From the NCBI GenBank assembly GCA_023663635.1, contig JAMPHD010000001.1, positions 390,383 to 454,382 on the forward strand: 64,000 nucleotides of DNA. Direction: 5' to 3'. Source of the DNA: Acetatifactor muris. GTDB lineage: Bacteria > Bacillota > Clostridia > Lachnospirales > Lachnospiraceae. Below the pieces are notes generated by a model that was not told the origin of the DNA, did not search any database, and worked only from the letters and a program-made list of their open reading frames with translations. The position numbers and the translations under genes are program-made. This document shows positions 18,062 to 47,964 of this stretch, piece after piece (position 1 is the first letter of the stretch; every line of letters starts with the position of its first letter).

Positions 18062-18109
18062 ATCAATCTTCCTCCTGTGAACTGTTTAATTTGCAATTGG
18101 TTTTCCGGT

Positions 18110-18912: not shown

Positions 18913-18919
18913 TCCCTCC

Positions 18920-19462: not shown

Positions 19463-19474
19463 GTAATCCGCCTC

Positions 19475-20728: not shown

Positions 20729-20759
20729 TGCTTATCCTCTCTTTTCAGATTTCTGTTTC

Positions 20760-23449: not shown

Positions 23450-23454
23450 ACTTT

Positions 23455-24486: not shown

Positions 24487-24531
24487 ATCTTGTTCATCAC
24501 CTTCCTGTCTGTATATTGCTGTATGTAATTT

Positions 24532-24789
24532 TTATAGTATTCCGCAGATGTGGATGCCGTTCAGGTCTCCGCAGGGCTCTTTGACCCACACCTTCTGTCC
24601 GGCGCTCAAATGAACATCGGGGATGCTGCATCCGACAATCCTCTCGCTGCCGGTCTCATCCAAGACCGTGAATCCTTTGGCACCGGCCCGCAGGATGACG
24701 GACCGGTAGGTCCGGTCCGCCTTGTACTCAGCTGCCTTTCTGTCGATCATGGTTTGAATTGATTTGAGGATTTCCGCTTTAAAATCCAT
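24532..24789 (-). CDS. small hypothetical phage protein
   Basis: An 85-aa ORF on the same strand in the tail module. Confidence 0.35.
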   Translation of the reverse strand: MDFKAEILKSIQTMIDRKAAEYKADRTYRSVILRAGAKGFTVLDETGSERIVGCSIPDVHLSAGQKVWVKEPCGDLNGIHICGIL

Positions 24790-25009
24790 TGCGATATCAC
24801 CCCCTTGGAATAGGTATTTGAGGACATATTAAAAGAGCAGAAGAATATGGATTCTCCTGCTCCTTTAAATAGGGTGTTATTGTTGGTAGTTACCCGGATA
24901 TTACGAAATTAAGCAATGTGTACGTCCGCAAAAATCATTTTTCCTCTCATTCCCATATCCTCCTTATCATTGATTATATAATACCATTTTACGTTGCTAA
25001 AATCAACAA

Positions 25010-26074: not shown

Positions 26075-26118
26075 TATATATCAACATCGGAGAAAATGCT
26101 ACTGTTTTCGACATATTT

Positions 26119-29100: not shown

Positions 29101-29673
29101 ATTGGTATTTTGGAGTTCGGTTTCTACTTCTTTGAGCTCGTTTCCTACATCATTCCAGGCATCTTTTGCGTCTTTTAACTTCTCTTTGTGTTCTTCAAGG
29201 GTTACATCTATTGCGTCATGTAACTTGTAAATTCCAAAGGTAAGCGCACCGATAGCCGCAACAACGGCTGTTGCCAATCCGACAGGATTTGTGGTCATCC
29301 ACGTCCACATGGCTTTGGTTGTGTTTTTGATAGATATACCTAAGCCTTTAAATGCTGTACCGAGTCCGAGAGTCGTACTTGTTGAGGTAGCTTGAGAGGC
29401 GGATAATGCTGCTGTAGACAAAGCGGTTTCGATTTGTTCTGTGTTCAATGTAGTTGTTTGAAGAACCTGTCTTGCTTGTGTTTCAGAAAATACCCCTTGA
29501 TTAATAGTAGCAATAAGTATTTCGTTAGAATATTTTTGTGTTGATTTAGATAATGCATCAATAATAACCTTATTCTTTGCTAAATTACCGTCTGGTATAT
29601 ATGAAAATTTATTAAATGTTTCATTTATAATGCTTGTTGCTTCAGATACTTTGGCGAGATCTTTTAGTTGCAT
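26119..29673 (-). CDS. tail tape measure protein, large C-terminal portion (1184 aa); the 5' third is compositionally AT-rich
   Basis: It has long coiled coils, an internal TM segment and a typical TMP C-terminus. Its position before Dit/Tal fits. GC content changes abruptly at about 28.35 kb. Confidence 0.78.
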   Translation of the reverse strand: MQLKDLAKVSEATSIINETFNKFSYIPDGNLAKNKVIIDALSKSTQKYSNEILIATINQGVFSETQARQVLQTTTLNTEQIETALSTAALSASQATSTSTTLGLGTAFKGLGISIKNTTKAMWTWMTTNPVGLATAVVAAIGALTFGIYKLHDAIDVTLEEHKEKLKDAKDAWNDVGNELKEVETELQNTNEAIKELEELPNLTWVEQEELDRLREVTKELELQKQLKQDDQLSAAEDLYKESRETFNKQFGNSIGNSSVDALKQQLSTGNISGIQLDLEDNLVDIEAMLQYLNETKEQLTDGTDIQIYESMIANLVQAKTDLIKSQGREMLSSISEYKQNILDIASVRDLTEDEQATYDYLSSVQKMIYEFYSPATWNSLEFDSIFDTKGLEKTKEELIAMAKAGELSPEVLQSFPKLNAAIRDSELIVSEGSDIFREFYDEITAIADRQLQFPAPEASFPDLFSLQNADNILTSLGKISESVDNVQNAYRVLSSAIDEYEQTGAISTDTLQSVMVLGDNWLDYLSEENGALSLNCDSLEELTRLRLEEMRVRALNNVIDNVQQIRNNADANLYLASTNYATAESFEELARTSMLSAKASLDARLASGELSQQLYDAVTAKMYGDINKINILFDNVTTGLADNFTAASSHAVESARSFSDLLDKELTVLDKKMEAGYTDFKDYIRDRLALIEDYYRQSKISADEYYSYLENHYAQELSYRDKAINAVTKRIDREINSLEKEKAAISDSWQTRIDALEEQKNLLQDANSERRRQLDLQKALYNLERAKNQRTALVYSEDGGMRYVTDEAALRDAETTVENAEYEIRISKIEKGVTELEQARDAETAAIDDMIDSLREYREQWNDITSAYEENQENLIAAQILGQEWESDILNCRLDTLSQFRDEYISIQQAMADAAWESANAQISAAREAAKGAEGNMGNASVAKNPPTYEVVDESTARTVRTFDSLSTAQEYAAKLSRNIPDTEPSYYVLNSSRYHTGLRQGPVSSHSFDEDFRLVRQVGLGNREVPAILKEGEAVATPEQISRLAAGLRQTQPIDPAAESITLSEPIITSDGHMLRPLQPGDRIWELQKAFEPLVSRILNDGEILVSNAILDGQRQMEQMTSRMHADSVNTRSIQPNVQIGDIHISCPGITDREVAEQVGVALNEKFRGFHLYAEQQSMIRR

Positions 29674-29726
29674 GATTTAACAAAAACATTTATAATATTT
29701 TCTATAATTATTAAGGAGATAATAAT

Positions 29727-30305
29727 ATGTCGCTTTTAGAAAAATGGCGTTCTATCGCATACGATTATACAAAATCTAAATCAGAAATAGATTCTTTTTG
29801 GAATCAATACTTTACAAAGGAAACACAATTTTATGAAAGGTTATTAAATATTTCAGAACATCCAATTTTAGATACGGTTGAAAATTTTGCTGTTAAATTT
29901 GATACAGATATTATAACTATGGTTGGATTTTTAGATGGAATTAATGATAGTCTTAAAATTCCAAATAATATTGAAGAAATAACGGAAAAAACAATAGTAA
30001 CATTAGATTGCAACTTAGAAGAGTTGTACAAAAATGCTATAAAATCAGATGCAAAGCACATATATACATTATCTATTTGGGATACAATTCTTCCGAATAG
30101 AAAAAGCATACCAAGACCACCAATTGAATATAAAGATAAATTGTTACAACCAACTTTAAACCAACCTAAATGTCCCACTTGTAATAGTACTAATATTAAG
30201 AAAATATCAGGCTTATCCAAAGCCGGGAGTGTGGCATTGTTTGGGATCCTTTCCCAAAAAGTAAAGCATCAGTTTAAATGCAACAACTGCGGCTATGAGT
30301 GGTAG
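29727..30305 (+). CDS. AT-rich hypothetical protein with a C-terminal CxxC...CxxC zinc ribbon (moron, opposite strand)
   Basis: This 192-aa ORF runs convergent to the TMP. It has very low GC. Its C-terminus reads CPTCNS...CNNCGYEW. Confidence 0.6.
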   Translation: MSLLEKWRSIAYDYTKSKSEIDSFWNQYFTKETQFYERLLNISEHPILDTVENFAVKFDTDIITMVGFLDGINDSLKIPNNIEEITEKTIVTLDCNLEELYKNAIKSDAKHIYTLSIWDTILPNRKSIPRPPIEYKDKLLQPTLNQPKCPTCNSTNIKKISGLSKAGSVALFGILSQKVKHQFKCNNCGYEW

Positions 30306-30310
30306 TGCCC

Positions 30311-30337
30311 GGGGCGGTCTTCCGTAAGGAGACCGCC
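30311..30337 (+). terminator. stem-loop immediately after the zinc-ribbon ORF
   Basis: The hairpin gggcggtct/agaccgccc is a 9-bp stem. No clear T tract follows. Confidence 0.35.
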
Positions 30338-30896
30338 CTGATTTAACATATGGGCTGCATATGATATATGTTTTGATTTTTACCCGTTGGCCGAAACACT
30401 GCGGCCAAGCGCATCACTGAAAATCATAAAATCGCAATGCGCACTATGCATTACCGGTAGACTGCATTATGGCTGCGGTCTGCCGGGAGGATGGGTATGT
30501 CTGTGGGGATTGCTCTCTCCGTCAGGGAGAGTGCCGTCCTGCTCGTTATCCATTGTCCGCGATACTTAGGCGTCCGTGGGTTCTCACCCGCGTTACCGTA
30601 TATCAACATGACCGGTTTTTTCTGCTTTCGCAACCGCGTCCGCAATGAGGGGACTGTGGTCCGACATGTGTTAGCCGGATGGCTCCGGTCTTACCCGAAA
30701 GTAAGAGATTTTCAAGCATTTACTCCTCCATGTACAGTTTATACTCCGCTTAAAGTGTTTGCAGAGTCTTATTAAAAACCCCATGTATCCACAGACTTGT
30801 ACGCGGCGCCGTTATGCCGTTTTCTTGTCTGTGATCGCCCGACCAAAATCCCCCGCCAAAGTGATTCCGATCATGTCACCCCGCGTTGCCGCGGGG

Positions 30897-32150
30897 TCAA
30901 GCAAAGTTTTTAACGAATTCCCGTATGCTCAACAGTCCGCTCCCTATTCCAACGGTTCCAAACAGTCCCGTCTTCTCCGTCAGCCGTTCAAGGCCGTTGC
31001 CGAGGGAGAGCAGGGCGTCAAGGAAGGTTTTCACGTCTTCGGGATCCAAGATGTTTTGCAGGATCCCGTTCCCCGCCTCCCGGAGACGGTTCAGGCGGTG
31101 CTCCACGGTGTCTGCCGCGGCGGCCATCTCCGTTTCTATGCCGCCCGCTGAGCGGGCCATGGTCTCCATGGAGTCGGTGACGGTGTCGAAGTGTTCGAGG
31201 AGGGCAGTGGAAAACCGCGCGTCTTCCTCTCTGCCGAGAAACTCCGACAGGCTGTTTTGCCGCGTGGCATCCAGTTCTCCGTAGATTTCAGAGATGTCCT
31301 GCAGCAGTTCCATGGTGGATTTCAGCCGTGTGCCGGCCTCGTCGGCGAAGAGGCTGACGCCTCCGGGGCTGTCAGCGGTACGGGTCAGTTCCGCCACGGT
31401 GCGGGAGAGTTCCCGGACGTCGGCGGTGCAGACCCCCGTGTCCTCGGAGTATCCGCGGGTCCGCAGGGAGAGTGTGTTCAGGATGTCCGCGGCCCGTGCG
31501 GCGTCTCCCGTGAGGGAGGTGAGGACCGCTCCGAGGGCTATGGTGTCCTCCGGGCTGTTGCCCGCATCCGCCATGGCATCGGCCGAGCGGGTCAGGAGCT
31601 CCAGGATTTCCGCATTGCCGAAGGGACGTGTCCTGCCCACGGCATTGATCTTGGAAAGGAGATCATCAAGGGTCCGGTCGGAAGTTTCCAAATCCATGCG
31701 GAAGGCTTTCATGACGGCGGAGAGCCCCGATACGGCATCTTCCGGGGTCATCCCGGGGGAGACGGCGGCCAGCATGGCGGAGTATTCGGTGAGTGTGGAG
31801 AGGGCATGTTGTGTCGCGGCGCCCAGTCTGCTCCACGCGGCGGCCTGTTCCAGAATGTCGGTGGTGGCGGTGCCGGTGCGGCGGGCGATGTCATCTGCGG
31901 TTTCATGAAAGGCAGCCAGTTGGCGCGCTGTCATGCGGGATGCCCTCTGCAGGGAAGTCATGGCTGTGTCGAGATCGCGGACGGCGGATAGGATATCTCC
32001 GGGGACGGTGAATGCCTTCACGAAGGCGCCGGCGCGTTTGGTGAGAAGGGAGAGAGTCCCCGCGCAGTCCGACAGAACCGCCAGGAGGGATTGGCCTTTT
32101 TTGCCCGCTTTGTCCAGATCTTTGATCAGGGTGTCGGTGGAATTGCTCAT
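30897..32150 (-). CDS. tail tape measure protein, N-terminal portion (417 aa)
   Basis: It has the alanine-rich TMP N-terminal core region (DLDKAGKKG..., LSAVMKAF..., TADVRELS...). It ends in a hydrophobic segment. Confidence 0.72.
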   Translation of the reverse strand: MSNSTDTLIKDLDKAGKKGQSLLAVLSDCAGTLSLLTKRAGAFVKAFTVPGDILSAVRDLDTAMTSLQRASRMTARQLAAFHETADDIARRTGTATTDILEQAAAWSRLGAATQHALSTLTEYSAMLAAVSPGMTPEDAVSGLSAVMKAFRMDLETSDRTLDDLLSKINAVGRTRPFGNAEILELLTRSADAMADAGNSPEDTIALGAVLTSLTGDAARAADILNTLSLRTRGYSEDTGVCTADVRELSRTVAELTRTADSPGGVSLFADEAGTRLKSTMELLQDISEIYGELDATRQNSLSEFLGREEDARFSTALLEHFDTVTDSMETMARSAGGIETEMAAAADTVEHRLNRLREAGNGILQNILDPEDVKTFLDALLSLGNGLERLTEKTGLFGTVGIGSGLLSIREFVKNFA

Positions 32151-32375
32151 GTGTCTGTGTTACCTCCTTTTCCGGATTAGGTCTCCTGATTTTCGGCATG
32201 GATCATTTCCGCCAGCCGGGAGATCAAATCTTTCTTTTTCTGCTCCTCCATGATGCCCAGAATGATTTCATAAATGGTCAATCTGATTTTCCACTGAGCC
32301 TTTTTCATTCTAAAGAATACAAACATCTGATTTTCCTCTTTTCTTTCTTCATTGATGGTTGTGGATCCGTATGGA

Positions 32376-32822
32376 TCAGTCCATTTCTTTCAATCCGCGC
32401 ATGGCCGGCTCCACAATGCTGTGAATGTATCCGTCTCCGCCGCGTGACTCATAATCGTCAAACAGATCCCAGAAGGCATCTTTTTCCAACTTGGACCATT
32501 GGACTGCATCCTTGTATTTATTGTAGTATCTCACAAGACTGTCCTTGAGTTTCTTAAGTTCCGTCTCGTTGTCCTTGCGCTGCATTTCCGCCAGAGTGGC
32601 TACAATGCCGTTGACGGTGTCGGACAGTTTGGCCAGATCCTTTTTGATGAGCAGCAGATCCCGCTCCTTCCGCCGTTTTCGCATCCATAGGGTCTCCAGC
32701 TCCAATTTATCGGAGAACCATTCCAGGATGGACAGCATGGATTTCATTCCGACCAGTATGACAAACACCGAGACAAGTACATAAGAAAAGTCGATCTTCC
32801 AAAATTCCCGTATTGCGTCCAT
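32376..32822 (-). CDS. membrane/coiled-coil lysis-accessory protein (XhlA-like?)
   Basis: It has one TM helix and a coiled coil. It is directly downstream of the holin, with its start at an internal Met that avoids overlap. Confidence 0.4.
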   Translation of the reverse strand: MDAIREFWKIDFSYVLVSVFVILVGMKSMLSILEWFSDKLELETLWMRKRRKERDLLLIKKDLAKLSDTVNGIVATLAEMQRKDNETELKKLKDSLVRYYNKYKDAVQWSKLEKDAFWDLFDDYESRGGDGYIHSIVEPAMRGLKEMD

Positions 32823-32835
32823 TTGCCGTACCGCC

Positions 32836-33141
32836 TCATTTCTTCGGGCCGATGATCTGCTCCACTGCCTGTCTGACCTTGTCATAGGAAGTCATACTCA
32901 CCAGACCTGCAGCCAGTCCCATCAGGATCAGACAGATCATGTTGTTGACCGTGAACGGAATGGCGTTCAGGCGGTAGAAGACGGCAGTACCGCCCCCGCC
33001 TATGACGAGGGCGGTGATCATTGCCGCGAGATTGTAGGGCAGATTGACTCTGTCAGTGATGAGAGTTTTAACGGCCTCCGTGACGAGACTGCTGATCGCG
33101 GAGAGAAGAGACAGCAAAATTAAAAACATGGTAGTGTTCAT
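32836..33141 (-). CDS. phage holin
   Basis: It is 101 aa with two or three TM helices and a charged C-terminus. It is immediately downstream of the endolysin. Confidence 0.7.
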   Translation of the reverse strand: MNTTMFLILLSLLSAISSLVTEAVKTLITDRVNLPYNLAAMITALVIGGGGTAVFYRLNAIPFTVNNMICLILMGLAAGLVSMTSYDKVRQAVEQIIGPKK

Positions 33142-33142
33142 A

Positions 33143-34189
33143 TCAAATCCTCCCTGTGATTCCTTTTACGATGGCATCCGCCATTTGGTCTGCCCGGTAT
33201 AAAGCCACATCGTCCCGATCGTCCACAAAGCAGCATTCGATGAGCAGTGCGGGAGATTTGGTCTTCTTTAACACGTAGAGCGAAGGGGACACCTTTACTC
33301 CGCGGTTTTTAAAGCCCAATGCCGCAATGGCATTGACGATACGTTGGGCATAGGGCTTGGCTTTGGATGTGGAGGAGTAGACATAGATTTCCGTTCCCGT
33401 GGTCCTGCCGTTGCCGCCCTTATCTTTGGCGCCGCTGTTGAAATGAATGCTGATGTCCAGATCTGCGGGCCGGGCATTGCACTTTTGGACGATCCGGCTC
33501 AGCACATTGTTTTGGCTTGTGCCGTCATTCACGGTGCAGTCATATACGGTGTGGCCCTGTGTCCTCAGTCTGTCGATGACTTTATCTTTGACAATACGGG
33601 CTTCGGTGGATTCTTTGATCAGTCCCACGGCTCCGCAGGCGATCTTGCCGTCCGGGTTGTGGCCGGCATGAATGTTAATGATCATTTGACGCTCTCCTTT
33701 CGTGCTCTGCCTGGGCTTGTCCCATGTGTCATATTGCGTCAGATCATACTTTCGGACAACGGCCATGACATTGTCAACGTATCGGATGCTTGTGGCATAT
33801 CCGTCCTGTTTGATGTTCTCCAGATAAATTTGCGGATCCGTCACACCTTTGAGATTGGCGTAATTGGAAATATTGGTAAAATCAAAATACCCGCGGACAC
33901 CGCTTTCCATATCGGGAAATCTCATCCAGTTCATTGAAGATGAGAGATAGCTGCCGTCAGCGTTCTGCTCACTCCCGATCTTGCGGTAGATCCCACAGGC
34001 GGTGGGACATCTGCCCGCCCGGTATTTCAGGCCGAAGTAGTTATGGGCATTCCGGGCAAGTTCAGATGTGCCGCTTGCGGATTCCAATATGGCCTGCGCC
34101 ACAATGGGGGAGCAGATACTGATCCCGTATTGGGGCGCGTATTTTTGTATGTATGGTACGATCTGTTCTATAAATCCCATGTCAGACAC
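33143..34189 (-). CDS. bifunctional endolysin: N-terminal glucosaminidase plus C-terminal N-acetylmuramoyl-L-alanine amidase (Amidase_3)
   Basis: The N-terminal domain (FIEQIVPYIQKYAPQYGI...) is glucosaminidase-like. The C-terminal part has IINIHAGHNPDG, GAVG and E...HFNS zinc-amidase motifs. Confidence 0.82.
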   Translation of the reverse strand: MSDMGFIEQIVPYIQKYAPQYGISICSPIVAQAILESASGTSELARNAHNYFGLKYRAGRCPTACGIYRKIGSEQNADGSYLSSSMNWMRFPDMESGVRGYFDFTNISNYANLKGVTDPQIYLENIKQDGYATSIRYVDNVMAVVRKYDLTQYDTWDKPRQSTKGERQMIINIHAGHNPDGKIACGAVGLIKESTEARIVKDKVIDRLRTQGHTVYDCTVNDGTSQNNVLSRIVQKCNARPADLDISIHFNSGAKDKGGNGRTTGTEIYVYSSTSKAKPYAQRIVNAIAALGFKNRGVKVSPSLYVLKKTKSPALLIECCFVDDRDDVALYRADQMADAIVKGITGRI

Positions 34190-34190
34190 C

Positions 34191-35327
34191 TCACTTTTTG
34201 CGCAGAGTATTTGATTTGCTATTTAGTTTTCGTAGTTTGGCGACACATACGTTCAATTTGTCGCACACATAATCCAACTCCTCCGGGGTCTCCTTCCCGC
34301 TGAAGGTCATGCGGACGCAACTGTGGATATCGTCCGGATCCATGCTGATGGCCGTCAGAGCAGTGGAGGCGGAGAGCGCCCCGCTGTTGCAAGCGGATCC
34401 GGTGGAGACCTGAATGCCGTTTGCGTCCAACAGATACATCAAAGATTCTCCCTCCACGCCCCGAAAGCATATATACAGATGCCGCGGCAGACGGTGACTG
34501 GCGCTGCCGACCAAGTAACTTTCGGGAATATGGTCTGCAATGTAGCGACAGACATAGTCCCGGGAGTGGGATGAGACGGAGGAATAGTCATGCTCCCTGA
34601 CGGCCCGGTCCAATGAGGCGATCCCAAGCACATTTTCGGTGCCGCCGATCAGTCCCTGCTCCTGGCTGCCGCAGATCAGCGGCTCCGGGTCAATGGCGGG
34701 CTTTTTGTAAAATACGCCGCAACCCTTCAACCCGCCCAGTTTGTGGGCGGAGAATCCGCACATATCCACATTCAGTTCCTCCACATCCAATGGGATGGAG
34801 GAAATACTGCCGGTGCAGTCCAAGTACATGATACCGTTAAAGTGATGTGTCAGATCGATGATCGCCCTCACATCCTGTATGGTTCCGATTTCGGAGCAGG
34901 CATGTTCAACCGCGACAAGGGCCTTTTCGTCTGACGCGCGCAATTGTTCCCGCAGGTTAGACAGATCTATCGATCCGTGTCGGTCCACTTTGAGCGGATA
35001 TGTCCTGTCGCGGTTTTCCACGCATTTTAAGATGGATTTGTGGGCGGTGGGAGAGTATAATATGCGACAATCGTGTCTCGCGCAATAGCCTCTGACGGCC
35101 AGAGTGTTGCTCGCTGCCCCGCCGGGGGTGAAGAAAATATCATTTGGGCAGGCATGGATAAAGCGGGCCACCGAATCCCGGCAAGATGTGATGATCTGCC
35201 GGGCCGGTTTGCCCACCGAATGGAGGGAGGAGGGATTGCCATATTGGTCCAACAGTGAGATCAGATACTGTCGGGTGGTGGGAGAGAGGGGAGTGGTGGC
35301 TGCATAATCCAGGTATATTTTTTTCAT
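34191..35327 (-). CDS. cysteine desulfurase (NifS/IscS-like, PLP-dependent class V aminotransferase)
   Basis: The MKKIYLDYAATTP N-terminus, the SAHKLGG PLP-lysine motif and a C-terminal active-site Cys region (GSACNSG) are present. Confidence 0.82.
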   Translation of the reverse strand: MKKIYLDYAATTPLSPTTRQYLISLLDQYGNPSSLHSVGKPARQIITSCRDSVARFIHACPNDIFFTPGGAASNTLAVRGYCARHDCRILYSPTAHKSILKCVENRDRTYPLKVDRHGSIDLSNLREQLRASDEKALVAVEHACSEIGTIQDVRAIIDLTHHFNGIMYLDCTGSISSIPLDVEELNVDMCGFSAHKLGGLKGCGVFYKKPAIDPEPLICGSQEQGLIGGTENVLGIASLDRAVREHDYSSVSSHSRDYVCRYIADHIPESYLVGSASHRLPRHLYICFRGVEGESLMYLLDANGIQVSTGSACNSGALSASTALTAISMDPDDIHSCVRMTFSGKETPEELDYVCDKLNVCVAKLRKLNSKSNTLRKK

Positions 35328-35358
35328 TTTGTCTTATTTCCTAAGTATGTGTCCGCGG

Positions 35359-35628
35359 TCAGGTTCCCATGATATCGTCCAATACCTTCCGGGCGCTCTC
35401 TTTGTAAAGCGCCCGGTCGGACAGATCCAGATCGGAGAGCAGATTTCTCGCCTCTTCCCCGGTGATGATATGATTATGGTAGTCTTTCAGGATCATGAAG
35501 ATTTGGTAGTGCGCGGGAGTGTCTGTCAGCACCCGCCAGGATGTGAATGCTTTGGACTTGGAGCAGCTGTCACAGGCATGATATCCCTTTCCGCACAGGA
35601 CACACCAATGATTGATCTCTCCGGGCAT
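35359..35628 (-). CDS. small zinc-binding protein (hypothetical)
   Basis: It has a CVLCGKGYHACDSC motif. It is translationally coupled between neighbouring genes. Confidence 0.4.
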   Translation of the reverse strand: MPGEINHWCVLCGKGYHACDSCSKSKAFTSWRVLTDTPAHYQIFMILKDYHNHIITGEEARNLLSDLDLSDRALYKESARKVLDDIMGT

Positions 35629-36395
35629 CAGTTGGCCACGATCACACTGAAGAGGTCGGTTCCGTCATCTTCACAGTAATCCTTCATGAAGTCGATGGAG
35701 AAACTGTGCTTGCCCGTTCCGGTCAGAGCCGTCTCGATGGATGAGGGATCGATCTTGCCTTTCTTGGCCACGATGGTACCGGCATACTTGATGTTCTCGT
35801 TGCACATGTCCTTGAAGATTGCGAAGATCTTCACGCCGACAGCCTCGGGGAAGTTCTCGGTATTGTTGACCACACGGACGGCGCCGGAGGTCTCGTACTC
35901 ATACTCCACATAGATCTTGCCGGTCACATCGGTGGGCACGGTGATCTCCCGGTCTGCGATGGTGAACTCGGACTCACTTGCCATTGCGCCCAAGGTAAAC
36001 TTTTGGGCGAGCTGACCGCTCTCAAGCTTATAGATGTACTTCACGTCATTCAGCGGTTTGTGGGACAGGGTGATTCTGCCGTCTTCCACGGTGAGAATTT
36101 CCTCCACGGGCACCCGGATCTTGTGATCCTCGTCCGCGATCTCCTTGTCCGTGCCATACTGCAGCGCCAACAGATCCATGCTGAACAGAGAGTTGGTGGC
36201 GGAGAAAGTGCCGGTCTTGGCCCTAAACAGTTTCGTGATCAATGCGCCCTGCGCGTTGGTGATCTCCTCGCCCTCGGCTGCAGTCTGCAGACTGGGCTCC
36301 TCCAGGTTGGTCAGACGGCCGATCACGGATCCGTCGGACAGGTCAGTGAAGATAAGGCTGCGCACCCTATCAAGAATCAGTTCGTTTACGTTCAT
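35628..36395 (-). CDS. phage structural protein (putative major tail/tube protein)
   Basis: It is 255 aa, acidic and beta-rich. Position and size are consistent with a sipho tail tube. The assignment is tentative. Confidence 0.4.
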   Translation of the reverse strand: MNVNELILDRVRSLIFTDLSDGSVIGRLTNLEEPSLQTAAEGEEITNAQGALITKLFRAKTGTFSATNSLFSMDLLALQYGTDKEIADEDHKIRVPVEEILTVEDGRITLSHKPLNDVKYIYKLESGQLAQKFTLGAMASESEFTIADREITVPTDVTGKIYVEYEYETSGAVRVVNNTENFPEAVGVKIFAIFKDMCNENIKYAGTIVAKKGKIDPSSIETALTGTGKHSFSIDFMKDYCEDDGTDLFSVIVAN

Positions 36396-36439
36396 AGTTT
36401 CTTCTCCTTTTTGTGATGTATTTGATAAAGAACCCGGGG

Positions 36440-37201
36440 TTATTTGAGTTCTCCCATCCAGTTTAAAGCGTCTTTGTCGATCCGGTTAAGGTTCACGCCA
36501 AAGCCCGAGTAGCCGCTCTGTAGGAGCAGGGTGGCGTTTTTGATCCGTTCAATCCTCTGTACGCTGTCCATAAAGGGATATATTTTCATGTCAAACACGG
36601 TGTGATGATCCTGCTTGAAACCCTCCGAGTTGACCATGGCGGATATCAGCGGCAGCAGATAAGAATGCGGTGTCATGCCCTTGCTTTGTTCATAGTTCTC
36701 TCTTGCCTCCTCTATTAGGATTCGGCGGGTGGCCTCATTGCCGGGGACTTCTTCATTGCGCCTGAGCCGGTGCATCTTACGGACGGCGGTTACAAGGGCA
36801 TTGTAAACGTAGCGGTCGATCCGCGGTTGCCTGTCCGGTCCGGATTGCGGCGCAAGAATGACTTCTTTGAGGTTCTCGTCATAGGTCGGTTGCATTTGAG
36901 ACAGATCCATGGAGTCACCCAGAAGGATGGCGGTGGACTTTCGGGGCAGTTGAGCGGACAGGAGAGAGGTAAACAGCTCAAAATCCGATATCCGAGTGTA
37001 ATCGATTCCCATGTCGTCTAATTGCCATTTCAGATCCGCGCCCACGGAGCACATCATCCGGACCATGTGAAAATATTCCGTCTCGCCGTACTCGCATATC
37101 TCGCGCAGAGTGGGCTGTCTGATGGAGATATGTTCATTGATTCGCAGATCGTCACCGCGATACAGTTTCAGTTCGTCGATTTGGTTTTCCGATCCCATCA
37201 T
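36440..37201 (-). CDS. hypothetical phage protein
   Basis: Choosing an internal Met start (MMGSENQ...) gives tight coupling to the HU-like gene stop. Confidence 0.4.
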   Translation of the reverse strand: MMGSENQIDELKLYRGDDLRINEHISIRQPTLREICEYGETEYFHMVRMMCSVGADLKWQLDDMGIDYTRISDFELFTSLLSAQLPRKSTAILLGDSMDLSQMQPTYDENLKEVILAPQSGPDRQPRIDRYVYNALVTAVRKMHRLRRNEEVPGNEATRRILIEEARENYEQSKGMTPHSYLLPLISAMVNSEGFKQDHHTVFDMKIYPFMDSVQRIERIKNATLLLQSGYSGFGVNLNRIDKDALNWMGELK

Positions 37202-37202
37202 T

Positions 37203-37532
37203 TTAACCTGCCTTTCCCGAGTGTCTGTTTTCAAAGAGTTTGCGGTTGATCTTTTCACTAAAGTATTTGGACAGACAGATTTTAGTCTTCACATGTGCCG
37301 GACAGTCGATATCCCGGAACATGCCCTTGGAATAGTTCTTTCGCGCCACATAGTTCCTTCGAATCTGTATGCCGCTAAACAGCTTAATGCTGACGTCCTC
37401 CGTCGGAGTGACTGAAACAAGACGGTCAAAAATGATTTTTTCCGCGGTCCGAAACATTTGTTGGACGATTGCCACATCCATATTTCCGCTTTCCGCGATC
37501 TGTCTGATCAAAGTATCCTGTGTGATGTTCAA
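37203..37532 (-). CDS. HU/IHF-like nucleoid DNA-binding protein (phage-encoded, diverged)
   Basis: The N-terminus (MNITQDTLIRQIAESGNMD...) and length match the HU fold pattern. Synteny with yonO recalls SPbeta yonN. Confidence 0.55.
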   Translation of the reverse strand: MNITQDTLIRQIAESGNMDVAIVQQMFRTAEKIIFDRLVSVTPTEDVSIKLFSGIQIRRNYVARKNYSKGMFRDIDCPAHVKTKICLSKYFSEKINRKLFENRHSGKAG

Positions 37533-37658
37533 AGCAGCTTGGTACCTCCTTTATACGCACAAAACTTTCGACGTAATTTACGGACGTTTTTCCGGTGAAG
37601 GATTTTTTTCAGCCGTAAATAACGGGATGATCTTCGGGGTTTTAAAACCGGGGACATG

Positions 37659-40307
37659 TCATGCATGGCGCTGTCTTTGTTTTTTGGCTCTCTCATATTC
37701 TCTGTCATGAATCTGCCTGCAGTGGGGGCATCTGCGGGTGCGCCTGTTGGAGAGATCCACCTCAAACCACTCTCCGCAGTCCTCGCATTGCACGAATTTG
37801 GTCTGCGGAATACTGATGTTTCGTGTCAGATTGTTCACAATATATTGTCCGTAGCAGAACCAGAGCAACTGTTTATAACGCTTTTGTCTGCCGTACAGAT
37901 ATTCTACCAACATATCCGTGACCGTTTCATCGGAGTATCCGAAACTGTGGAATTGTTCCCTCATCTGCCCGGCAATATAGTGCAGATTATCGATGTATTC
38001 ATCTTTGCGGTTGATCATGTACCGATACTGTCTGTTCAGGCTGTCGTACAGGTCGGCAACTTCCCTGCTGCAGACCATGGTCTTGTTACACATCATATTT
38101 CGATGATCGAGCGGGGCAAGATCCATGGAGCGGGTGTTGATGGGACTGTTGGGAATCCGGTCATAGATTCTGTTGACCAGACTGCCGTTTCGTGCCTGTA
38201 ACTGCGAATCTTCCTTATCTTTGGCGTATGCAAAGAATGCGGGGAGTTTCGCCTGAGTGTACTTGGCGATCCGTTCCCTGACTTCCCGGGGAAATTCCGG
38301 CTTATACAGGGTCTTGGCGAAGTCGATCACAAAGTTGTTTTGGCAGCACAGTTGCCGAACGCAGTCCAAAGCCTCCCGTTTTTCTTTTTCCGAACCGGAT
38401 AGGAAGACTTCATGATTCCAAATCTTGGAGATGCTGTTGCTGTAGGTGCCGATATTGCCTCCCGTGAAGGCCGCATATAATCCGTCATAGATTGTCTGAG
38501 GCGTCAGCGGGGTCGGCTCTGACTTGCGCATATTGTAATAGAGGGGGACAATGCCTTTCATATTGCGCTCCGCAACGCGGATAAAATCTTCATCCGCTAC
38601 CACCAGGGCTTTATCGCCATCCACATCGTACATTAAGATCTTGCTGATCAGATCATGGGTGCTCGCGTAGAGACCGTCCGTAGTGAACCATTCTCCGATC
38701 CGGTCGGCCCGTTCGCCGTATTCCACACAGGCCGCATTGATGCGTATGGCATGTTCCTTATACAGATGCGGACTCCGCAGACAGTCCAACCGGGGATGCC
38801 TTCTAAACATCCGGCAAAACACCTCATGATCCGCCAACAGGCCTTTCGGTTGTGGCGCGTGTCCGAACCAGTGCTCACAGGCGGCATAGAAATCGGGTAG
38901 CAGAAAGGCGTATTTGCCGTTTATTTCCAATCGGCCGCTGCGATATTTTTGCACAAGGCTGTTTTTGATGTCCCGTATCATGTCCTTGGTATAGGTGTCG
39001 TTGAGCAGAGCGGGGTACATTTTTACGGATTTTTGAAAGGCCGTCATGTCGGTGTTGTAGGGAGTGATGCCCAGTATTTCAATCATGGTCTCGCGGGAAT
39101 TGCATATATTGCGGATGCGTTCGGACGATCTTCGGGTGATCAGATCGACTTCCTCATCCGTTACGTCAGTGAGCGTCTGCAGCATCTGGTAATTGATCTT
39201 GGCATTCCTGCCCCTCTGTTCTTCTCTGTTGCATATTCCCGCGCGACAATGGTATTTTTTGAAACAGTCCTTGTACTCATCCCAGGAATCGTAGTACCGG
39301 TACATCTTAAACTGACTTTTGGTAAAAATAATGCGGATGTCTTCCTCTATAATATTGTGCTCTCTGCCGTACAGGTCCGTGATGACGGGAGAGCAGTCGT
39401 TGACCGTCACAAACTTTCTAAAGTCGAATACGCCCAACAACCCCTTGATCCAAGGGGCGCGGAACATGAAATTTTTGTCGGAGACGTAGGGGAGCATCAT
39501 GCCGGCTCCGTCAGTGTGGGGAATCGGTATGTAGTCGGATTTTCTTGTGATGGAATAATCCGTTTCGTCCACGAAGTCAAAGGTGCCATATACATTCGTC
39601 TCAAAATCATCCACCACGATGGTCCGGTCGATATCAAAATCTCTCCACTCGGTGGTGGCAGAGTTGGTCAGAGCCATATAGGCCAGATGCTTATTGACAT
39701 TATTGCCGCCCCGTGAGTTGATCCTGTCGATGGTGAGTCCGCACATGACGGAGGATTCGATCCGATTCCACACGGTCTCTTTGATAAAGACAGCCTTCTT
39801 CTTGCGGATCTGCCCGGCTGAGGAGGTAAAGTACCGATATCGCTCACCCGCATACATAAAGCCGTGGAAGGCAATATCCTTAAAAATGTCAAAGTAGTAC
39901 ACCTGAACGATCATCAGCGCGTCCGTCAGTTCATCCCGGCCGATACCGATGGCGCGGCTGAGATAGGAGTCGAAGACGGAGACGATATCGGTATCTTTCA
40001 GACTGCCGTCTCGGACGCTGCGGATATGGTCCCGCCCGGCAGTCCGCTCATTTTGTGACACTTTGTGGGACAGAAGGGTCAACATTTTCTCTTTGGTTTC
40101 CCTGATCTTAGCCTTCTTATGCGTAGTAAGGTTCTCCCAATGTCTGCGGGCAGCAGGTGACATTTCCGTTTGGACTTTGGTACGGCTGTCCCTGAGTTGG
40201 AGAAGTTCGCAGCGATACCTGCGGATCCGGTCATGCAGATTCTGCTCGCGGTTACTGTAAAAGTGTGCCGTATCTATGGAATAGACATAATATAATTGGT
40301 CCTGCAT
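37659..40307 (-). CDS. YonO-like single-subunit DNA-dependent RNA polymerase homolog
   Basis: It is 882 aa. It contains the DVDGD (DxDGD) catalytic metal-binding motif of double-psi beta-barrel RNAPs and a C-terminal CxxC...CxxC zinc ribbon. It lies adjacent to an HU-like gene, as in SPbeta yonO-yonN. Confidence 0.6.
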   Translation of the reverse strand: MQDQLYYVYSIDTAHFYSNREQNLHDRIRRYRCELLQLRDSRTKVQTEMSPAARRHWENLTTHKKAKIRETKEKMLTLLSHKVSQNERTAGRDHIRSVRDGSLKDTDIVSVFDSYLSRAIGIGRDELTDALMIVQVYYFDIFKDIAFHGFMYAGERYRYFTSSAGQIRKKKAVFIKETVWNRIESSVMCGLTIDRINSRGGNNVNKHLAYMALTNSATTEWRDFDIDRTIVVDDFETNVYGTFDFVDETDYSITRKSDYIPIPHTDGAGMMLPYVSDKNFMFRAPWIKGLLGVFDFRKFVTVNDCSPVITDLYGREHNIIEEDIRIIFTKSQFKMYRYYDSWDEYKDCFKKYHCRAGICNREEQRGRNAKINYQMLQTLTDVTDEEVDLITRRSSERIRNICNSRETMIEILGITPYNTDMTAFQKSVKMYPALLNDTYTKDMIRDIKNSLVQKYRSGRLEINGKYAFLLPDFYAACEHWFGHAPQPKGLLADHEVFCRMFRRHPRLDCLRSPHLYKEHAIRINAACVEYGERADRIGEWFTTDGLYASTHDLISKILMYDVDGDKALVVADEDFIRVAERNMKGIVPLYYNMRKSEPTPLTPQTIYDGLYAAFTGGNIGTYSNSISKIWNHEVFLSGSEKEKREALDCVRQLCCQNNFVIDFAKTLYKPEFPREVRERIAKYTQAKLPAFFAYAKDKEDSQLQARNGSLVNRIYDRIPNSPINTRSMDLAPLDHRNMMCNKTMVCSREVADLYDSLNRQYRYMINRKDEYIDNLHYIAGQMREQFHSFGYSDETVTDMLVEYLYGRQKRYKQLLWFCYGQYIVNNLTRNISIPQTKFVQCEDCGEWFEVDLSNRRTRRCPHCRQIHDREYERAKKQRQRHA

Positions 40308-40317
40308 ACTGTGCCTC

Positions 40318-40836
40318 CTATGCCAAAATGTCAGAGTGGCGCCTGTTGCGGCGGGGCTTTATGTCGAGCCATACTTCCCAGTAGCCGTCACAATAGCGGG
40401 TCCGCAGGGTGTCGGGATAGAATTTGGCCAGCTCCATGATCTGAAAAATGTAATAGCAGTAATCTTTCCGACCTGCACGGATATTGTCCGACACATCGCT
40501 TATGTAGGCGCAATATCGCTGCCAGTTGGTGGGACCGCTGTATTGGCCTCTTGTCTCCTCATTCCAGAGGCCGGATTCCTTGGAGTAATGACCGGTCGGA
40601 CGGTTTATATGATCCGGGCAGGGGGTGATGAACAGTTTTCTCAGATAAAATTCTTTCTGCCATTTCTCATCGGTGAGAGCAGCGGAGGGCCTCCCGTCAG
40701 TATTGGATATCAGTTTCCTGCGTTTCAGTTCTTCCAATCCCATGGCCCTGTACCGCTGTTCGGCCCGGGCGATCGTCTCATCGGTATGCGGGCATACCGG
40801 CGCAAAATATGGAGTTGTCTGTGTGATTGTTGTCAT
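40318..40836 (-). CDS. hypothetical protein (Cys/Tyr-rich)
   Basis: An AAGGAGGA ribosome-binding site precedes the ATG at 40836. It is the first gene of the minus-strand operon downstream of the SOS-box region. Confidence 0.45.
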   Translation of the reverse strand: MTTITQTTPYFAPVCPHTDETIARAEQRYRAMGLEELKRRKLISNTDGRPSAALTDEKWQKEFYLRKLFITPCPDHINRPTGHYSKESGLWNEETRGQYSGPTNWQRYCAYISDVSDNIRAGRKDYCYYIFQIMELAKFYPDTLRTRYCDGYWEVWLDIKPRRNRRHSDILA

Positions 40837-40928
40837 GTGTCTCAAATCCTCCTTAGTTGGTTGAATCAGGTGGCGGTATGATATATTTCTCCGTTTTGCC
40901 GGGAACACATCTCAAAAAATCCAATTTT

Positions 40929-40980
40929 AGAACAAATGTTCGAAAATTTTATTGACAAATCAGAACGCATGTTCTATACT
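40929..40980 (+). promoter_or_regulatory. divergent promoter region with two LexA/Cheo boxes (AGAACAAATGTTCG, AGAACGCATGTTCT). The second lies in the spacer of TTGACA-17-TATACT.
   Basis: Direct read. The GAAC-N4-GTTC pattern is the Gram-positive SOS box consensus. Confidence 0.6.
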
Positions 40981-41027: not shown

Positions 41028-41591
41028 TTGGAAATGGAACAAATGCTAAATGCTTATTATGCGGATAATGCGTCCAAACTGCATAGGACAGTGGATCGGA
41101 TCCTGCAAAAGTATGGCGGTTTATCAGGTAAGGACAGAGATGATTTCTATTCACTTGCCAATGAGGTGTTCGCGGAGGCCATAAAACGTTATGACCGGTC
41201 GCAGACCTTTGACGGTTTTCTGTATATCTGTCTGAATAATCGCATTAAGACGGAGATAACGCGAAGAAATCGAGAGAAACGTAAGGTGGACAGAGTATGT
41301 ATTTCCATGGATATGCCGATCGGTGACGATGAAGATTCCACTTTGGCAGATGTGATCACGGATGATTTTAACTTGGAGGAAACGGTGTTGGCCGGATCAA
41401 ATGAAGGGTACGGCAAACGACTGTCAGCGTATCTCGCCAGATTGTCAGAGTTGCAGAGGAGGGTGTTGAGACTGGATGCCGCAGGCTATCTGCCCCATGA
41501 GATCAGGGAGAAACTGCAGATTACGGAGAGACAGTATGCGGATTGCAACGCAGCAATCCATTCCTACAGAAATATATCACTGTTGCTCTGA
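41028..41591 (+). CDS. group-5 (TcdR/UviA/BotR-like) alternative sigma-70 family factor
   Basis: It is 187 aa with region 2 (YD...FxxY) and a region 4 HTH (LSELQRRVLRLDAAGYLPHEIREKLQITERQ). It sits directly downstream of the LexA-box promoter. Confidence 0.72.
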   Translation: MEMEQMLNAYYADNASKLHRTVDRILQKYGGLSGKDRDDFYSLANEVFAEAIKRYDRSQTFDGFLYICLNNRIKTEITRRNREKRKVDRVCISMDMPIGDDEDSTLADVITDDFNLEETVLAGSNEGYGKRLSAYLARLSELQRRVLRLDAAGYLPHEIREKLQITERQYADCNAAIHSYRNISLLL

Positions 41592-41610: not shown

Positions 41611-42678
41611 ATGGCAAAACCGCGCAGACAGACTTATACGATGGATATGTATCTCCATAAAGTGTCGGATGCCGACATTCGCAATGACGCGGATGTGCAG
41701 AGGCAATTTATCTGGAGCAGGGAGCAGATCGATGAACTGGTGATGACGGTCCTTGCGGATGACTATATTCCGCCGATCGTCCTCGGAGAGGAGGACAGTT
41801 CCCAATTGTGGATCGTGGATGGCGGACAGCGCACGATGGCTTTGGCCAAATTTCGTTATGGGAATCATAAGATCATTCCAGGGAAGAAGAACTCACGAAT
41901 TTCCTATAAGAAGAAAGAACGGGATGATTCAGGCAAGATCGTATGGGAGGACGCCGTCTGCGATATTCGCAATAAGACTTATGACAAACTGCCGGAGGAG
42001 CTGAGAAAGCAGTTTAATGAATATCAGATAGAGACGGTCATTCATGAACACTGTGACAACCATAGGATCTCCCAACTGATCAAAAGATATAACAATCACA
42101 CTGCAATGAACACGAATCAGAAGGCATTTACCTATATCGATCGTTTTGCCAGGGATATCCGCGAGATCTCGGAGAGCGGTTTCTTTGTGGAATACAGTGA
42201 GTATTCCGAGAAGGAGAAGAGCAAGGGGGTGGTGGAACGCGTGATTGTGGAGACCGTGATGTGTACCAATCACTTGAACGATTGGAAGAAACAGACCGGA
42301 GCGATCTGCATATATTTGAACCGGAATGCCGCAAAGGAGGAGTTTACAGAGCTGGCAGAACGGATTCATCGACTGGAACGGGTGATCACGGAGGATATCA
42401 AAAGTATATTTAACAGCAGGGATTCCTTTTTGTTCCTGACTTTGTTTGAACGATTTACAAGGTCGGGAATGGAGGATGTGCTGTTTGCGCAATTCCTGAG
42501 AGAATTTAAAAACCACCTCAGACAGACGAGGATGGATGGTGTGCTATTTGACGAGACAGGCAAGGAGAAAGGGAGTAAGAACAAGGCGGTCATTCTTGCC
42601 AAGTTGGACATATTGGAAAGGATGATGTGGGATTTTTTGCGGTCGGAGGAGGAATCCGATAAAAATAAAATGCGATAA
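41611..42678 (+). CDS. DUF262 (ParB/Srx-like nuclease superfamily) domain protein
   Basis: It has the LWIVDGGQRTMAL (DGxxR) signature. An AAAGGAGGG ribosome-binding site is present. It is co-oriented 20 bp after the sigma gene. No DUF1524/HNH-like C-terminal domain is apparent. Confidence 0.62.
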   Translation: MAKPRRQTYTMDMYLHKVSDADIRNDADVQRQFIWSREQIDELVMTVLADDYIPPIVLGEEDSSQLWIVDGGQRTMALAKFRYGNHKIIPGKKNSRISYKKKERDDSGKIVWEDAVCDIRNKTYDKLPEELRKQFNEYQIETVIHEHCDNHRISQLIKRYNNHTAMNTNQKAFTYIDRFARDIREISESGFFVEYSEYSEKEKSKGVVERVIVETVMCTNHLNDWKKQTGAICIYLNRNAAKEEFTELAERIHRLERVITEDIKSIFNSRDSFLFLTLFERFTRSGMEDVLFAQFLREFKNHLRQTRMDGVLFDETGKEKGSKNKAVILAKLDILERMMWDFLRSEEESDKNKMR

Positions 42679-42717
42679 ACATGGTATTTCTACCGCATTT
42701 ATCGCATTTGACGAGCT

Positions 42718-43140: not shown

Positions 43141-43272
43141 TTAATGTTATGTATTAATTATACAGTAATATAATATTATGTCAATAAATAAATACAAAAT
43201 ATTGCTGAAAATGTGGGAAAGATGTGATTTGGCCTATGGTTTCTTCGAAATTTGTCGGACTGATACAAATAT

Positions 43273-43914: not shown

Positions 43915-43933
43915 ATACTTTCTCCCTGTTTGT

Positions 43934-47919: not shown

Positions 47920-47928
47920 AGAAGAAAA

Positions 47929-47962: not shown

Positions 47963-47964
47963 AC

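Follow-up and report, generated by a model that had tools for sequence, protein, structure and literature searches.

What does a single-subunit RNA polymerase (RNAP) do at the head of a set of phage tail genes in the chromosome of a gut bacterium, and from which promoter would it start? The question is raised by a 64,000-nucleotide (nt) stretch of Acetatifactor muris DNA (GenBank assembly GCA_023663635.1, contig JAMPHD010000001.1, positions 390,383 to 454,382 of the forward strand; hereafter the window), in which an 882-residue open reading frame (ORF) with a DVDGD motif is followed by an HU-like gene. The locus had been singled out in a reading of the letters alone (the original prediction), and every sequence feature listed there was found in its place. 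Our analysis makes it likely that an intact polymerase of the YonO type heads a co-oriented block comprising a diverged HU gene, siphovirus-type tail genes and lysis genes, and that this block is a late operon, triggered through the SOS response and a sigma factor and read from a conserved 22-nt block in the spacer between the polymerase and HU-like genes. Window coordinates are collected in Table 1, and labels of the form L### denote the related loci that were compared (129 in the count of polymerase-to-HU order), L001 being SPbeta.

We compared the 882-residue protein with annotated phages by tblastn. It matched SPbeta YonO at 40.7% identity over 97% of the query (E=0), CLG_B2308 of Clostridium phage D-1873 at 44% and Psychrobacillus phage Perkons at 42%, and a three-way alignment including the window polymerase and YonO was collinear end to end. 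The PHROGs family phrog_8308 covered residues 7-869 (E=9e-246), and the Pfam family RdRP (PF05183) was matched above its gathering score (39.4 vs 23.8 bits). When the catalytic fragment was searched in isolation, the RdRP match began exactly at D561 and spanned profile positions 435-545 of 582, with E=0.11 for the window sequence and 1.9e-6 for the best family member. An alignment of 66 diverse homologues, with identities down to ~28%, contained 23 invariant columns, including D561, D563, D565, K206, R283, K288, K334, R511 and K665; G564 and four cysteines near the C terminus (C841, C844, C860 and C863) were conserved in at least 90% of the sequences. Every invariant or nearly invariant residue of the family is present in the window polymerase, and YonO carries DNDGD in the column of the window's DVDGD. 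The alignment thus bore out both the YonO-like polymerase with a DxDGD signature and the C-terminal zinc ribbon (CxxC pairs at residues 841-844 and 860-863) that had been read from the letters; the Cys4 motif itself gave weak matches to zinc-ribbon families and to RNAP subunit P/Rpo12. Judged by its sequence, the homology of the protein to YonO is beyond doubt and the ORF is an intact orthologue of SPbeta YonO. It is one more member of a large known family, and the gene itself is ordinary.

The fold was approached through structure prediction. Direct and profile searches with the whole protein and with its catalytic region found no significant polymerase among the sequences of the PDB, only zinc-ribbon and coiled-coil noise. 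A first AlphaFold (AF2) run with 30 sequences (39-74% identity) reached a predicted local distance difference test (pLDDT) score of 65, with the catalytic region below 50, and was superseded by a model from the 66-sequence alignment (pLDDT 92.6; predicted template modelling score, pTM, 0.88). Searched with Foldseek, the latter model gave significant matches only to plant RDR2 and Neurospora QDE-1 (E 7e-19 to 8e-12); the next matches, non-significant, were RNAP beta' chains, and further structural matches were the crAss-like gp66 virion RNAP and P23-45 gp96. The Cys4 region was modelled as a beta-hairpin with strands E836-840 and E847-851. Since sequence profiles reach no solved structure, the fold claim rests on the model, which supports the two double-psi beta-barrels common to RNA-dependent RNA polymerases (RdRPs) and to beta/beta' of the multisubunit RNAPs (msRNAPs). 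The prediction had named, as the outcome that would speak against it, a placement in some other fold in which DVDGD falls in a loop that is not conserved; the structure search returned two-barrel polymerases only, and the aspartates are invariant.

These matches also bear on the template that the enzyme would use. That it might be an RNA-dependent polymerase and not a DNA-dependent transcriptase is a reading encouraged by the name of its best Pfam family, by QDE-1 and RDR2 as the best structural matches of the model, and by the annotation of the homologues in Psychrobacillus phage Perkons and Enterocloster phage PMBT24 as RNA-dependent RNA polymerases. We regard it as exceedingly improbable. 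YonO, 41% identical and collinear, was shown by biochemistry to be a processive DNA-dependent RNAP and is genetically required for late-gene transcription, being needed for 37 SPbeta late genes (PMC5467207); the NCBI name of the Bacillus protein is DNA-directed RNA polymerase YonO; the DNA-dependent crAss-like virion RNAP and P23-45 gp96 are also among the structural matches; and a position heading the late block of a double-stranded DNA phage fits transcription. Because the window polymerase is homologous to YonO, DNA-dependent RNAP activity is expected for it, by analogy and despite the family name.

The family is large. An exhaustive search returned 1,237 clusters at 50% identity with E<=1e-3, 361 of them with E<=1e-30, and a word-indexed search in which 8,000 candidates were scored returned more than 3,300 clusters at 90% identity. 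The idea that such RNAPs are rare outside Bacillus phages was therefore not sustained; they are abundant in elements of gut Lachnospiraceae. A pattern scan of IMG/VR found 62 yonO-like loci, mostly on contigs of 100-170 kb, and a scan of species-representative genomes found 72, in Bacillus, Paenibacillus, Brevibacillus, Virgibacillus, Oscillospiraceae, Lachnospiraceae, Mediterraneibacter and others. NCBI lists the exact window protein as hypothetical, from a Clostridium sp./Acetatifactor metagenome-assembled genome (MAG). Many relatives have the yonO-like gene split into two or three ORFs (L049-L053, L057, L058, L068, L070 and several phage homologues), and in some of them the halves are separated by a GIY-YIG nuclease or a hypothetical ORF, a pattern suggestive of interruptions of the intron or intein type; the window gene is uninterrupted.

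The minus strand between 42.7 and 17.8 kb reads in the order 196-aa ORF, polymerase, HU-like gene, 253-aa protein, tail tube, then lysis and tail genes. Every ORF of the block is intact and the packing is tight, with 1 nt between the stop codon of the HU gene and the start codon that follows. By its gene assignments, the arrangement, with the polymerase heading a co-oriented tail/lysis block, is consistent with late-gene transcription. Terminase, portal and capsid genes had no match in the block in PHROGs or Pfam, and at least six of its ORFs have no annotation. In a tblastn comparison of the window with the SPbeta late region, in which the HU-like gene was outside the query set, the only match besides the polymerase was a weak one to the tape measure, at 23% identity. 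The block sits in a low-GC island: left of 17.8 kb the GC content jumps from ~0.40 to 0.60, and right of ~45.6 kb lie host-type genes, namely a MerR regulator, a RelB/ParE pair, an EamA transporter, histidine kinases and an aldo-keto reductase. No integrase was found, and no attachment (att) repeats emerged when direct repeats were sought between the tRNA-Leu gene or the right edge and the left edge. A complete SPbeta-like prophage would span ~125-135 kb and encode terminase, portal, capsid, replication and integration functions; what we observe, between host-type flanks, is a phage-derived block of ~25 kb in a low-GC island of ~30 kb, not a prophage of SPbeta size.

The same layout, polymerase, HU, 253 aa, tube, then 101 aa, 148 aa, the tape-measure-protein (TMP)-like gene and 1184 aa, with a divergent pair of sigma-factor and GmrSD_N genes, was found in L104, L121, L105, L106, L108 and L111. 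These six loci, in Lachnospiraceae or Lachnoclostridium MAGs, show 23-82% protein identity and likewise have no head genes between HU and tube. Relatives are also present in Mediterraneibacter hominis NSJ-55 (L109) and in Lachnospiraceae of the mouse gut. The recurrence of the layout bears on the main rival for the element as a whole, that it is the decaying remnant of an SPbeta-like prophage which has lost its head and replication modules and is no longer a working unit. Several observations would fit such decay: relatives of the SPbeta type measure 100-170 kb, and L067, on a 148-kb contig with a polymerase 67% identical by tblastn and 72% by BLASTP, keeps PhoH, YonJ_CC and an integrase downstream, none of which is in the window; the head-gene and integration searches described above came back empty; two ORFs on the opposite strand, in a low-GC patch, break up the TMP-like region; and the polymerase-HU spacer seems shortened compared with L067 and L106. 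Set against them are the polymerase, in which all invariant and nearly invariant family residues are kept, the block, in which all ORFs are open and tightly packed, and the layout, which recurs together with the sigma/GmrSD_N pair and the LexA-box block described below in six or more MAG loci whose proteins are 23-82% identical, so that selection on the arrangement is indicated. On balance we consider decay unlikely.

Upstream of the polymerase lies a 196-aa ORF that is probably co-transcribed with it. In 29 loci a homologue precedes the polymerase gene (52-56% identity in L104 and L121), and no family matched in Pfam, PHROGs or other profile searches. The control region, 119 nt between this operon and a divergent sigma-70-family gene, contains two perfect GAAC-N4-GTTC palindromes 33 bp apart, which we take to be LexA boxes by the Firmicute consensus CGAACN4GTTCG; the 64-kb window holds three such sites where 0.9 are expected. 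The second box lies inside the spacer of a near-consensus sigma-A-type promoter that reads into the sigma gene. The LexA-box block is conserved in L104, L106, L108, L111 and L121, as are the sigma factor (60-63% identical, in the same divergent position) and the GmrSD_N protein beside it (59-60%). The placement of LexA-type boxes on a sigma-A promoter suggests, from the sequence pattern, SOS control of the sigma gene and a cascade from LexA through the sigma factor and the YonO-like polymerase to the tail/lysis block. The GmrSD_N/DUF262 gene is presumably co-transcribed with the sigma gene, and the pair is kept in nine related loci; its product may act in defence, in sensing DNA modification or in a partition-like role.

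The gene directly after the polymerase had been called a diverged HU/IHF-like gene. At the level of its family this was upheld: a profile of 16 diverged-HU sequences, with canonical HU excluded, matched pA104R of African swine fever virus (ASFV; 1.9e-5), SPO1 TF1 (8.9e-4) and bacterial HU (2.6e-3), and 13 of the 16 members matched Pfam Bac_DNA_binding (PF00216; best 3.4e-7). The window protein by itself was a weaker case, spanning positions 2-90 of the 90 in PF00216 with E=0.009 and 16.6 bits, below the gathering score of 22.4; against YonN it gave a BLASTP E of 8e-5. It also has no RNP arm: the RNPxTG motif with its intercalating proline is absent, the window reading ARKNYSKGMF where YonN has ARKGRNPQTGE. 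The NP motif was likewise found in 0 of 20 loci classed as diverged-HU (one of them, L078, not encoding an HU-like protein). The profile and PF00216 matches of the family support an HU fold for the 109-aa protein, in a diverged and not a canonical form. Its start lies 126 nt downstream of the polymerase gene, and the proposed yonO-yonN synteny proved to be real and general: in ~100 of the 129 related loci, the polymerase gene is followed at no more than 450 nt by an ORF of 80-175 aa, which in nearly every case is HU-like. An HU-family gene is thus a near-universal neighbour of yonO, canonical in Bacillales and diverged in Clostridia.

Where the polymerase would start was sought in the spacer between the two genes. 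The work of Forrest et al. 2017 stopped short of defining a cognate promoter for the YonO family (PMC5467207), and we found no paper that defines the YonO promoter or the role of yonN, in keeping with the description of these enzymes as poorly characterised. A de novo expectation-maximization (EM) search of 56 non-redundant polymerase-HU spacers returned one 22-nt motif in nearly all of them (log-likelihood 284 vs 65-79 in shuffled sets). Its consensus is GATAATTGTCTTTAAGGGAAAG (also given as approximately TAATnGTCTTTAAGGGA or TAATnGTCTTTAAGGGAGA) and its core TAAGGGA/TAAAGGAGG, and it spans Bacillus (GATAATCGTCATAAGGGAGACA in the SPbeta spacer), Paenibacillus (CTTAATAGTCTTTAAGGGGGAC) and Clostridia. 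The window copy, with a site score of 15.5, lies 6 nt after an inverted repeat and 11 nt before the start codon of the HU-like gene. In most loci the motif is single-copy and is the best match on either strand of ~22 kb, as scored by a position weight matrix (PWM) trained on these spacer sites.

A comparison with the one published start was possible in SPbeta. The single YonO-dependent start mapped by Forrest et al. 2017 has the published coordinate 2225998 (PMC5467207). We placed it by the bracket of the primer-extension primers only, at L001 11291-11483; this bracket lies 285-480 nt downstream of yonN, outside the yonO-yonN spacer. The best motif match in the 1.68-kb gap between yonN and yonK is GATGTCTGTATCTTCAGGAGAC at L001 11422, inside the bracket. 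This site, which is outside the training set, scored 10.4 (p~0.04, at a background of 9 per 36,800 positions) vs 10.8 for the SPbeta spacer copy, with which it has GGAGACAGA in common. It is conserved in the diverged relatives L068 and L070, the conservation beginning ~25 nt upstream, and the L068 copy scored 14.7, the best match in 4.5 kb. SPbeta would carry two copies of the motif; in the window and most relatives there is a single copy, immediately ahead of the HU-family gene. We regard the 22-nt block, on these comparisons, as a good candidate for the YonO-family promoter, though an unproven one.

Other functions for the block deserve weight, and it is quite possible, if short of an even chance in our estimate, that it is a promoter for a host or phage sigma factor, a signal at the RNA level (processing, leader or ribosome binding for HU) or the site of another phage protein. 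The published YonO start in SPbeta lies elsewhere; the G-rich 3' half of the motif resembles a Shine-Dalgarno sequence and in the window is that of the HU gene; a conserved micro-ORF follows directly in some lineages; the motif always precedes the HU gene and could simply be its expression signal; and six G-U cells in the neighbouring repeat are compatible with an RNA hairpin on the sense strand. Yet in most loci the motif lies 30-157 nt from the HU start, with a separate Shine-Dalgarno sequence beside the start codon; it has no -35/-10 geometry and no Rfam family match; a sigma gene is nearby in only nine loci; its constant partners from Bacillus and Paenibacillus to Lachnospiraceae are the polymerase and HU genes; and a second copy falls within the SPbeta interval that holds a YonO-dependent start. 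A sigma-70-type reading of the block was rejected, no such site being called and the -35/-10 geometry being absent, and an Rfam scan of the window region matched no family to the spacer. We set aside a reading of the motif as a pac site, as the SPbeta pac site maps around yonR-yonP, upstream of yonO (PMC8270828). An internal SPbeta similarity, GATAATCGTCAT/GATAATAGTCAT (11/12), was compatible with chance over all positions and was not used.

Two observations accompany the motif. Between it and the HU-like start, some relatives have a micro-ORF of ~25 aa (ML.FTN.DM.FINRIR..GG; L067 ~12830-12905, L003 ~12875-12950, L005 ~8210-8270). The window has no such stretch and its motif abuts the ribosome-binding site of the HU gene; the window spacer appears shortened relative to L067 and L106. 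In the yonN-yonK gap of SPbeta, L001 12366-12431 (+) matches the Rfam DUF3800-VIII RNA (RF03075; 47.5 bits vs a gathering score of 40.2), ~900 nt downstream of the bracketed YonO start; this RNA may be the 'unannotated non-coding RNA' of Forrest et al. 2017, and the Rfam scan found no counterpart in the window.

The spacer also contains the inverted repeat, which had been proposed as a cognate promoter or terminator. Its arms are perfect over 8 bp (ATTTACGG/CCGTAAAT), extendable to 12 bp with one mismatch, around a 29-nt loop. A repeat this long or longer occurred in 151 of 2000 shuffles (7.5%) and in 37 of 507 window tiles of the same size; taken alone, the repeat is at chance level and not significant, and it becomes meaningful only through conservation in relatives. 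Its closest relatives, L067 (arms CGTTATTTACG/CGTAAATAACG, 32-nt loop) and L106 (GTTATTTACGGA/TCCGTAAATAAC, 28-nt loop), keep the window's arms at the same distance from the motif, 6-7 nt before the 22-nt block. In other Clostridia lineages (e.g. L008, L010, L019 and L064), the same position is taken by arms of unrelated sequence, 12-22 bp long, around A/T-rich loops of 20-29 nt. Among 44 lineage spacers, 10 had a repeat at p<=0.01, where 0.4 would be expected. When the two arm types (that of the window and that of L104/L003/L004) were aligned, 93% of cells were paired, compared with 32-49% in slid controls, and 5 of 12 repeat pairs changed on both sides; this is covariation, two arm types amounting to few independent events. 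The repeat is absent from the Bacillales relatives. A significant repeat accompanied 12 of 20 diverged-HU lineages vs 1 of 21 canonical-HU lineages (Fisher p=1.7e-4, uncorrected for phylogeny), and this co-occurrence suggests, at the level of sequence association, that the HU-like protein recognises the repeat.

That the repeat is an intrinsic terminator ending the polymerase transcript would suit its place directly after the polymerase stop codon, the annotated stem-loop right after yonO in SPbeta and the compensatory changes that keep its arms complementary. We nevertheless judge this improbable and rejected it as the main explanation. No terminator-like or sigma-70-type site was called in the spacer, whose fold energy is ordinary (z=0.36); the loops of the repeat, 21-32 nt (29 nt in the window) and A/T-rich, compare with 3-8 nt for a terminator, and no T-run follows the 3' arm; an A-run ahead of the 5' arm in several lineages has the orientation for stopping antisense, not sense, transcription; and the Bacillales relatives have no repeat at all. 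Of the two roles first proposed for it, that of terminator thus fell away, and as a promoter the adjoining 22-nt block is the better candidate. In the spacers of L008, L010, L019, L044 and L064, a run of 5-8 A stands immediately before the 5' arm, and read on the antisense strand, A-run and repeat form a hairpin followed by a T-run; such repeats could also stop antisense transcription entering the polymerase gene. The window has no A-run.

Collectively, these observations point to a late operon with the following course. DNA damage would take LexA off the pair of SOS boxes at the sigma-A promoter from which the divergent sigma gene is read; the sigma factor, or read-through by the host RNAP, would then express the 196-aa ORF and the polymerase; and, by analogy with YonO, the polymerase would transcribe the HU/tail/lysis block as a late operon, presumably starting at the 22-nt block in the spacer. 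The inverted repeat would exert control in a lineage-specific way, as an operator or as an RNA hairpin by which early transcription is insulated from late. Several points weigh against this proposal. The LexA-box identification rests on the match to the Firmicute consensus, the limits of the island on GC content with no integrase or att repeats found, and the absence of head genes on failed searches in a block whose ORFs of 354, 343, 309 and 417 aa have no annotation. The spacer sites were scored by a PWM for which they were the training set. The mapped SPbeta start lies downstream of yonN, so the spacer copy is not the published promoter, and the link to that start rests on a second, weaker copy (10.4, p~0.04), partly chosen after inspection. 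Finally, the 3' half of the window motif (AAGGAGG) doubles as the Shine-Dalgarno sequence of the HU-like gene, which may inflate its score. A fuller version, in which the 22-nt block is the YonO promoter, the repeat the operator of the HU-like protein, this protein a regulator or co-factor of the RNAP, and the island an SOS-triggered F-type tailocin with its own polymerase, is speculative, and we hold it doubtful.

Table 1. Features of the window discussed in the text (positions in the window, position 1 being its first letter)
Feature	Position	Strand	Remark
Co-oriented downstream tail/lysis block	17765..37201	-	PHROGs and Pfam (YomU_Tube, PhageMin_Tail, Glucosaminidase+Amidase_3)
Further tail proteins	down to 17765	-	
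1184-aa ORF	26119-29673	-	
TMP-like gene (PhageMin_Tail), 417 aa	30897-32150	-	
101-aa and 148-aa ORFs		-	between endolysin and TMP-like gene
Endolysin	33143-34189	-	
Aminotran_5 (class-V aminotransferase/cysteine-desulfurase-like)	34191-35327	-	phrog_12787
89-aa ORF		-	between tail tube and Aminotran_5 gene
YomU-type tail tube	35628-36395	-	PF27173
253-aa protein	downstream block	-	phrog_4051; start 1 nt after HU stop codon
Diverged HU-fold gene, 109 aa	37203..37532	-	TTG start; positional counterpart of SPbeta yonN
Polymerase-HU spacer, 126 nt	37533-37658		contains TTTACGG...CCGTAAA
Conserved 22-nt block, candidate cognate promoter	37544..37565	-	GTTTTGTGCGTATAAAGGAGGT; window copy of family motif
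Inverted repeat, downstream arm	37572..37583	-	CCGTAAATTACG; 29-nt A-rich loop between arms
Inverted repeat, upstream arm	37613..37624	-	CGTTATTTACGG on coding strand
yonO-like gene, 882-aa single-subunit two-barrel (double-psi beta-barrel) RNA polymerase	37659..40307	-	
Cys4 zinc-ribbon-like motif, C-terminal (C841, C844, C860, C863)	37719..37787	-	two CxxC pairs
DVDGD codons (residues 561-565), presumed Mg-binding catalytic motif	38613..38627	-	position and conservation
Upstream ORF, 196 aa (longest ORF; 172 aa in source record)	40318..40908	-	ends 10 nt before polymerase start
Two GAAC-N4-GTTC (LexA/Cheo-type) boxes	40930-40941 and 40963-40974		divergent control region
Near-consensus sigma-A-type promoter TTGACA-17-TATACT	40952..40980	+	11/12 consensus; reads into sigma gene
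Sigma-70-family factor, 187 aa, divergent from polymerase operon	41028..41591	+	Pfam Sigma70_r2 E=1e-6; PHROG sigma families
GmrSD_N/DUF262 (ParB-like N-terminal) protein, co-oriented with sigma gene	41611..42678	+	Pfam GmrSD_N E=1e-12
MerR regulator	45596-46519		
RelB/ParE toxin-antitoxin pair	46720-47267		
tRNA-Leu(aag)	47965-48048	-	right edge of low-GC stretch

Some features of the island stand apart from the proposed circuit. Between the TMP-like and 1184-aa genes, the block is interrupted by plus-strand ORFs of 192 and 94 aa at 29727-30775, in a patch of 39% GC; homologues of the 192-aa ORF occur elsewhere in L104 and L121, and the patch could be an insertion splitting a tape-measure gene. 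The Aminotran_5 gene between tube and endolysin is an unusual passenger for a late operon and has the same place in L111 (53% identity). Beyond the phage-like genes, the low-GC island continues at 42700-48050 with an Rce1-like CPBP protease and a TetR-like protein, followed by the MerR regulator.

The wider interest of the locus lies in what it says about YonO. Among the single-chain relatives of the msRNAPs in bacteria and phages, YonO is the only late-gene transcriptase to have been characterised biochemically, and it is of interest as a minimal model for the active site of two-barrel enzymes and possibly for the ancestor of cellular RNAPs. Which promoter it uses and whether it needs a helper protein have been standing questions since 2017, and the family-wide spacer motif makes its promoter specificity directly testable. 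New from the comparison are a motif that occurs once beside the polymerase gene in hosts across the Firmicutes and a second time in the start-site interval of SPbeta; a near-universal HU-family neighbour, which in Clostridia is diverged and goes with a covarying repeat beside the motif; and a compact clade in which head genes were not detected and the polymerase would stand under a LexA-boxed sigma-factor gene. The motif could give annotators a marker for the start of the late operon in yonO-bearing elements. If the doubtful fuller version were true, a two-barrel single-subunit RNAP would have in the HU-like protein its dedicated regulator or co-factor.

Compared with known polymerases, the window protein shares 11-16% identity with the cellular two-barrel RdRPs (QDE-1, RDR2; PF05183), whose PDB chains are unmatched even by profiles, and the template preference of YonO, its characterised relative, is DNA (PMC5467207). 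Phi14:2 gp66 (2166 aa), P74-26 gp62 and P23-45 gp96 (a tape-measure fusion) are packaged in the virion or fused to other modules; they have no detectable sequence similarity to the window polymerase, and their genome context differs. The HU-like protein shares with the HU/IHF family (TF1, pA104R) a length of ~100 aa and a best-conserved N-terminal helical half, and differs from it in having no R-N-P-x-T arm and in a C-terminal extension of ~15 aa. In phage T7, the RNAP gene is directly followed by its first cognate promoter, and by analogy only, a block of ~20 nt with a G-rich end stands after the RNAP gene there too (…TAAGGGAGA here, …TATAGGGAGA in T7). T7 RNAP is a right-hand, Pol I-like enzyme whose fold is unrelated to that of the window polymerase, and the sequence resemblance of the block to the T7 promoter is probably coincidental.

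As a genetic element, the island can be set beside the F-type tailocins, which are flexible and non-contractile (such as Listeria monocins and Pseudomonas F-pyocins), and B. subtilis PBSX with Xpf, which likewise consist of chromosomal tail and lysis genes with regulators placed at the end. The island resembles tailocins in having tube, TMP-like, tail-protein and endolysin genes, no head genes detected among ORFs of which at least six are unannotated, and a presumed control of the stress/SOS type. PBSX makes heads and has the sigma-like activator Xpf, and we know of no F-type tailocin or PBSX that carries a polymerase of the YonO type. From the SPbeta YonO system, 134 kb in Bacillus, the island differs in its size of ~25-30 kb in a gut Lachnospiraceae-type MAG, in having no head, packaging, replication or integrase genes detectable with PHROGs or Pfam, in an HU partner without the RNP arm, in the repeat beside the motif with no long gap or non-coding RNA after HU, and in a LexA-boxed sigma-factor gene divergently upstream where SPbeta has yonR. 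Common to both systems are the DxDGD motif, the Cys4 ribbon, an HU-family gene directly downstream of the polymerase, co-oriented structural and lysis genes, and a tail tube of the YomU type.

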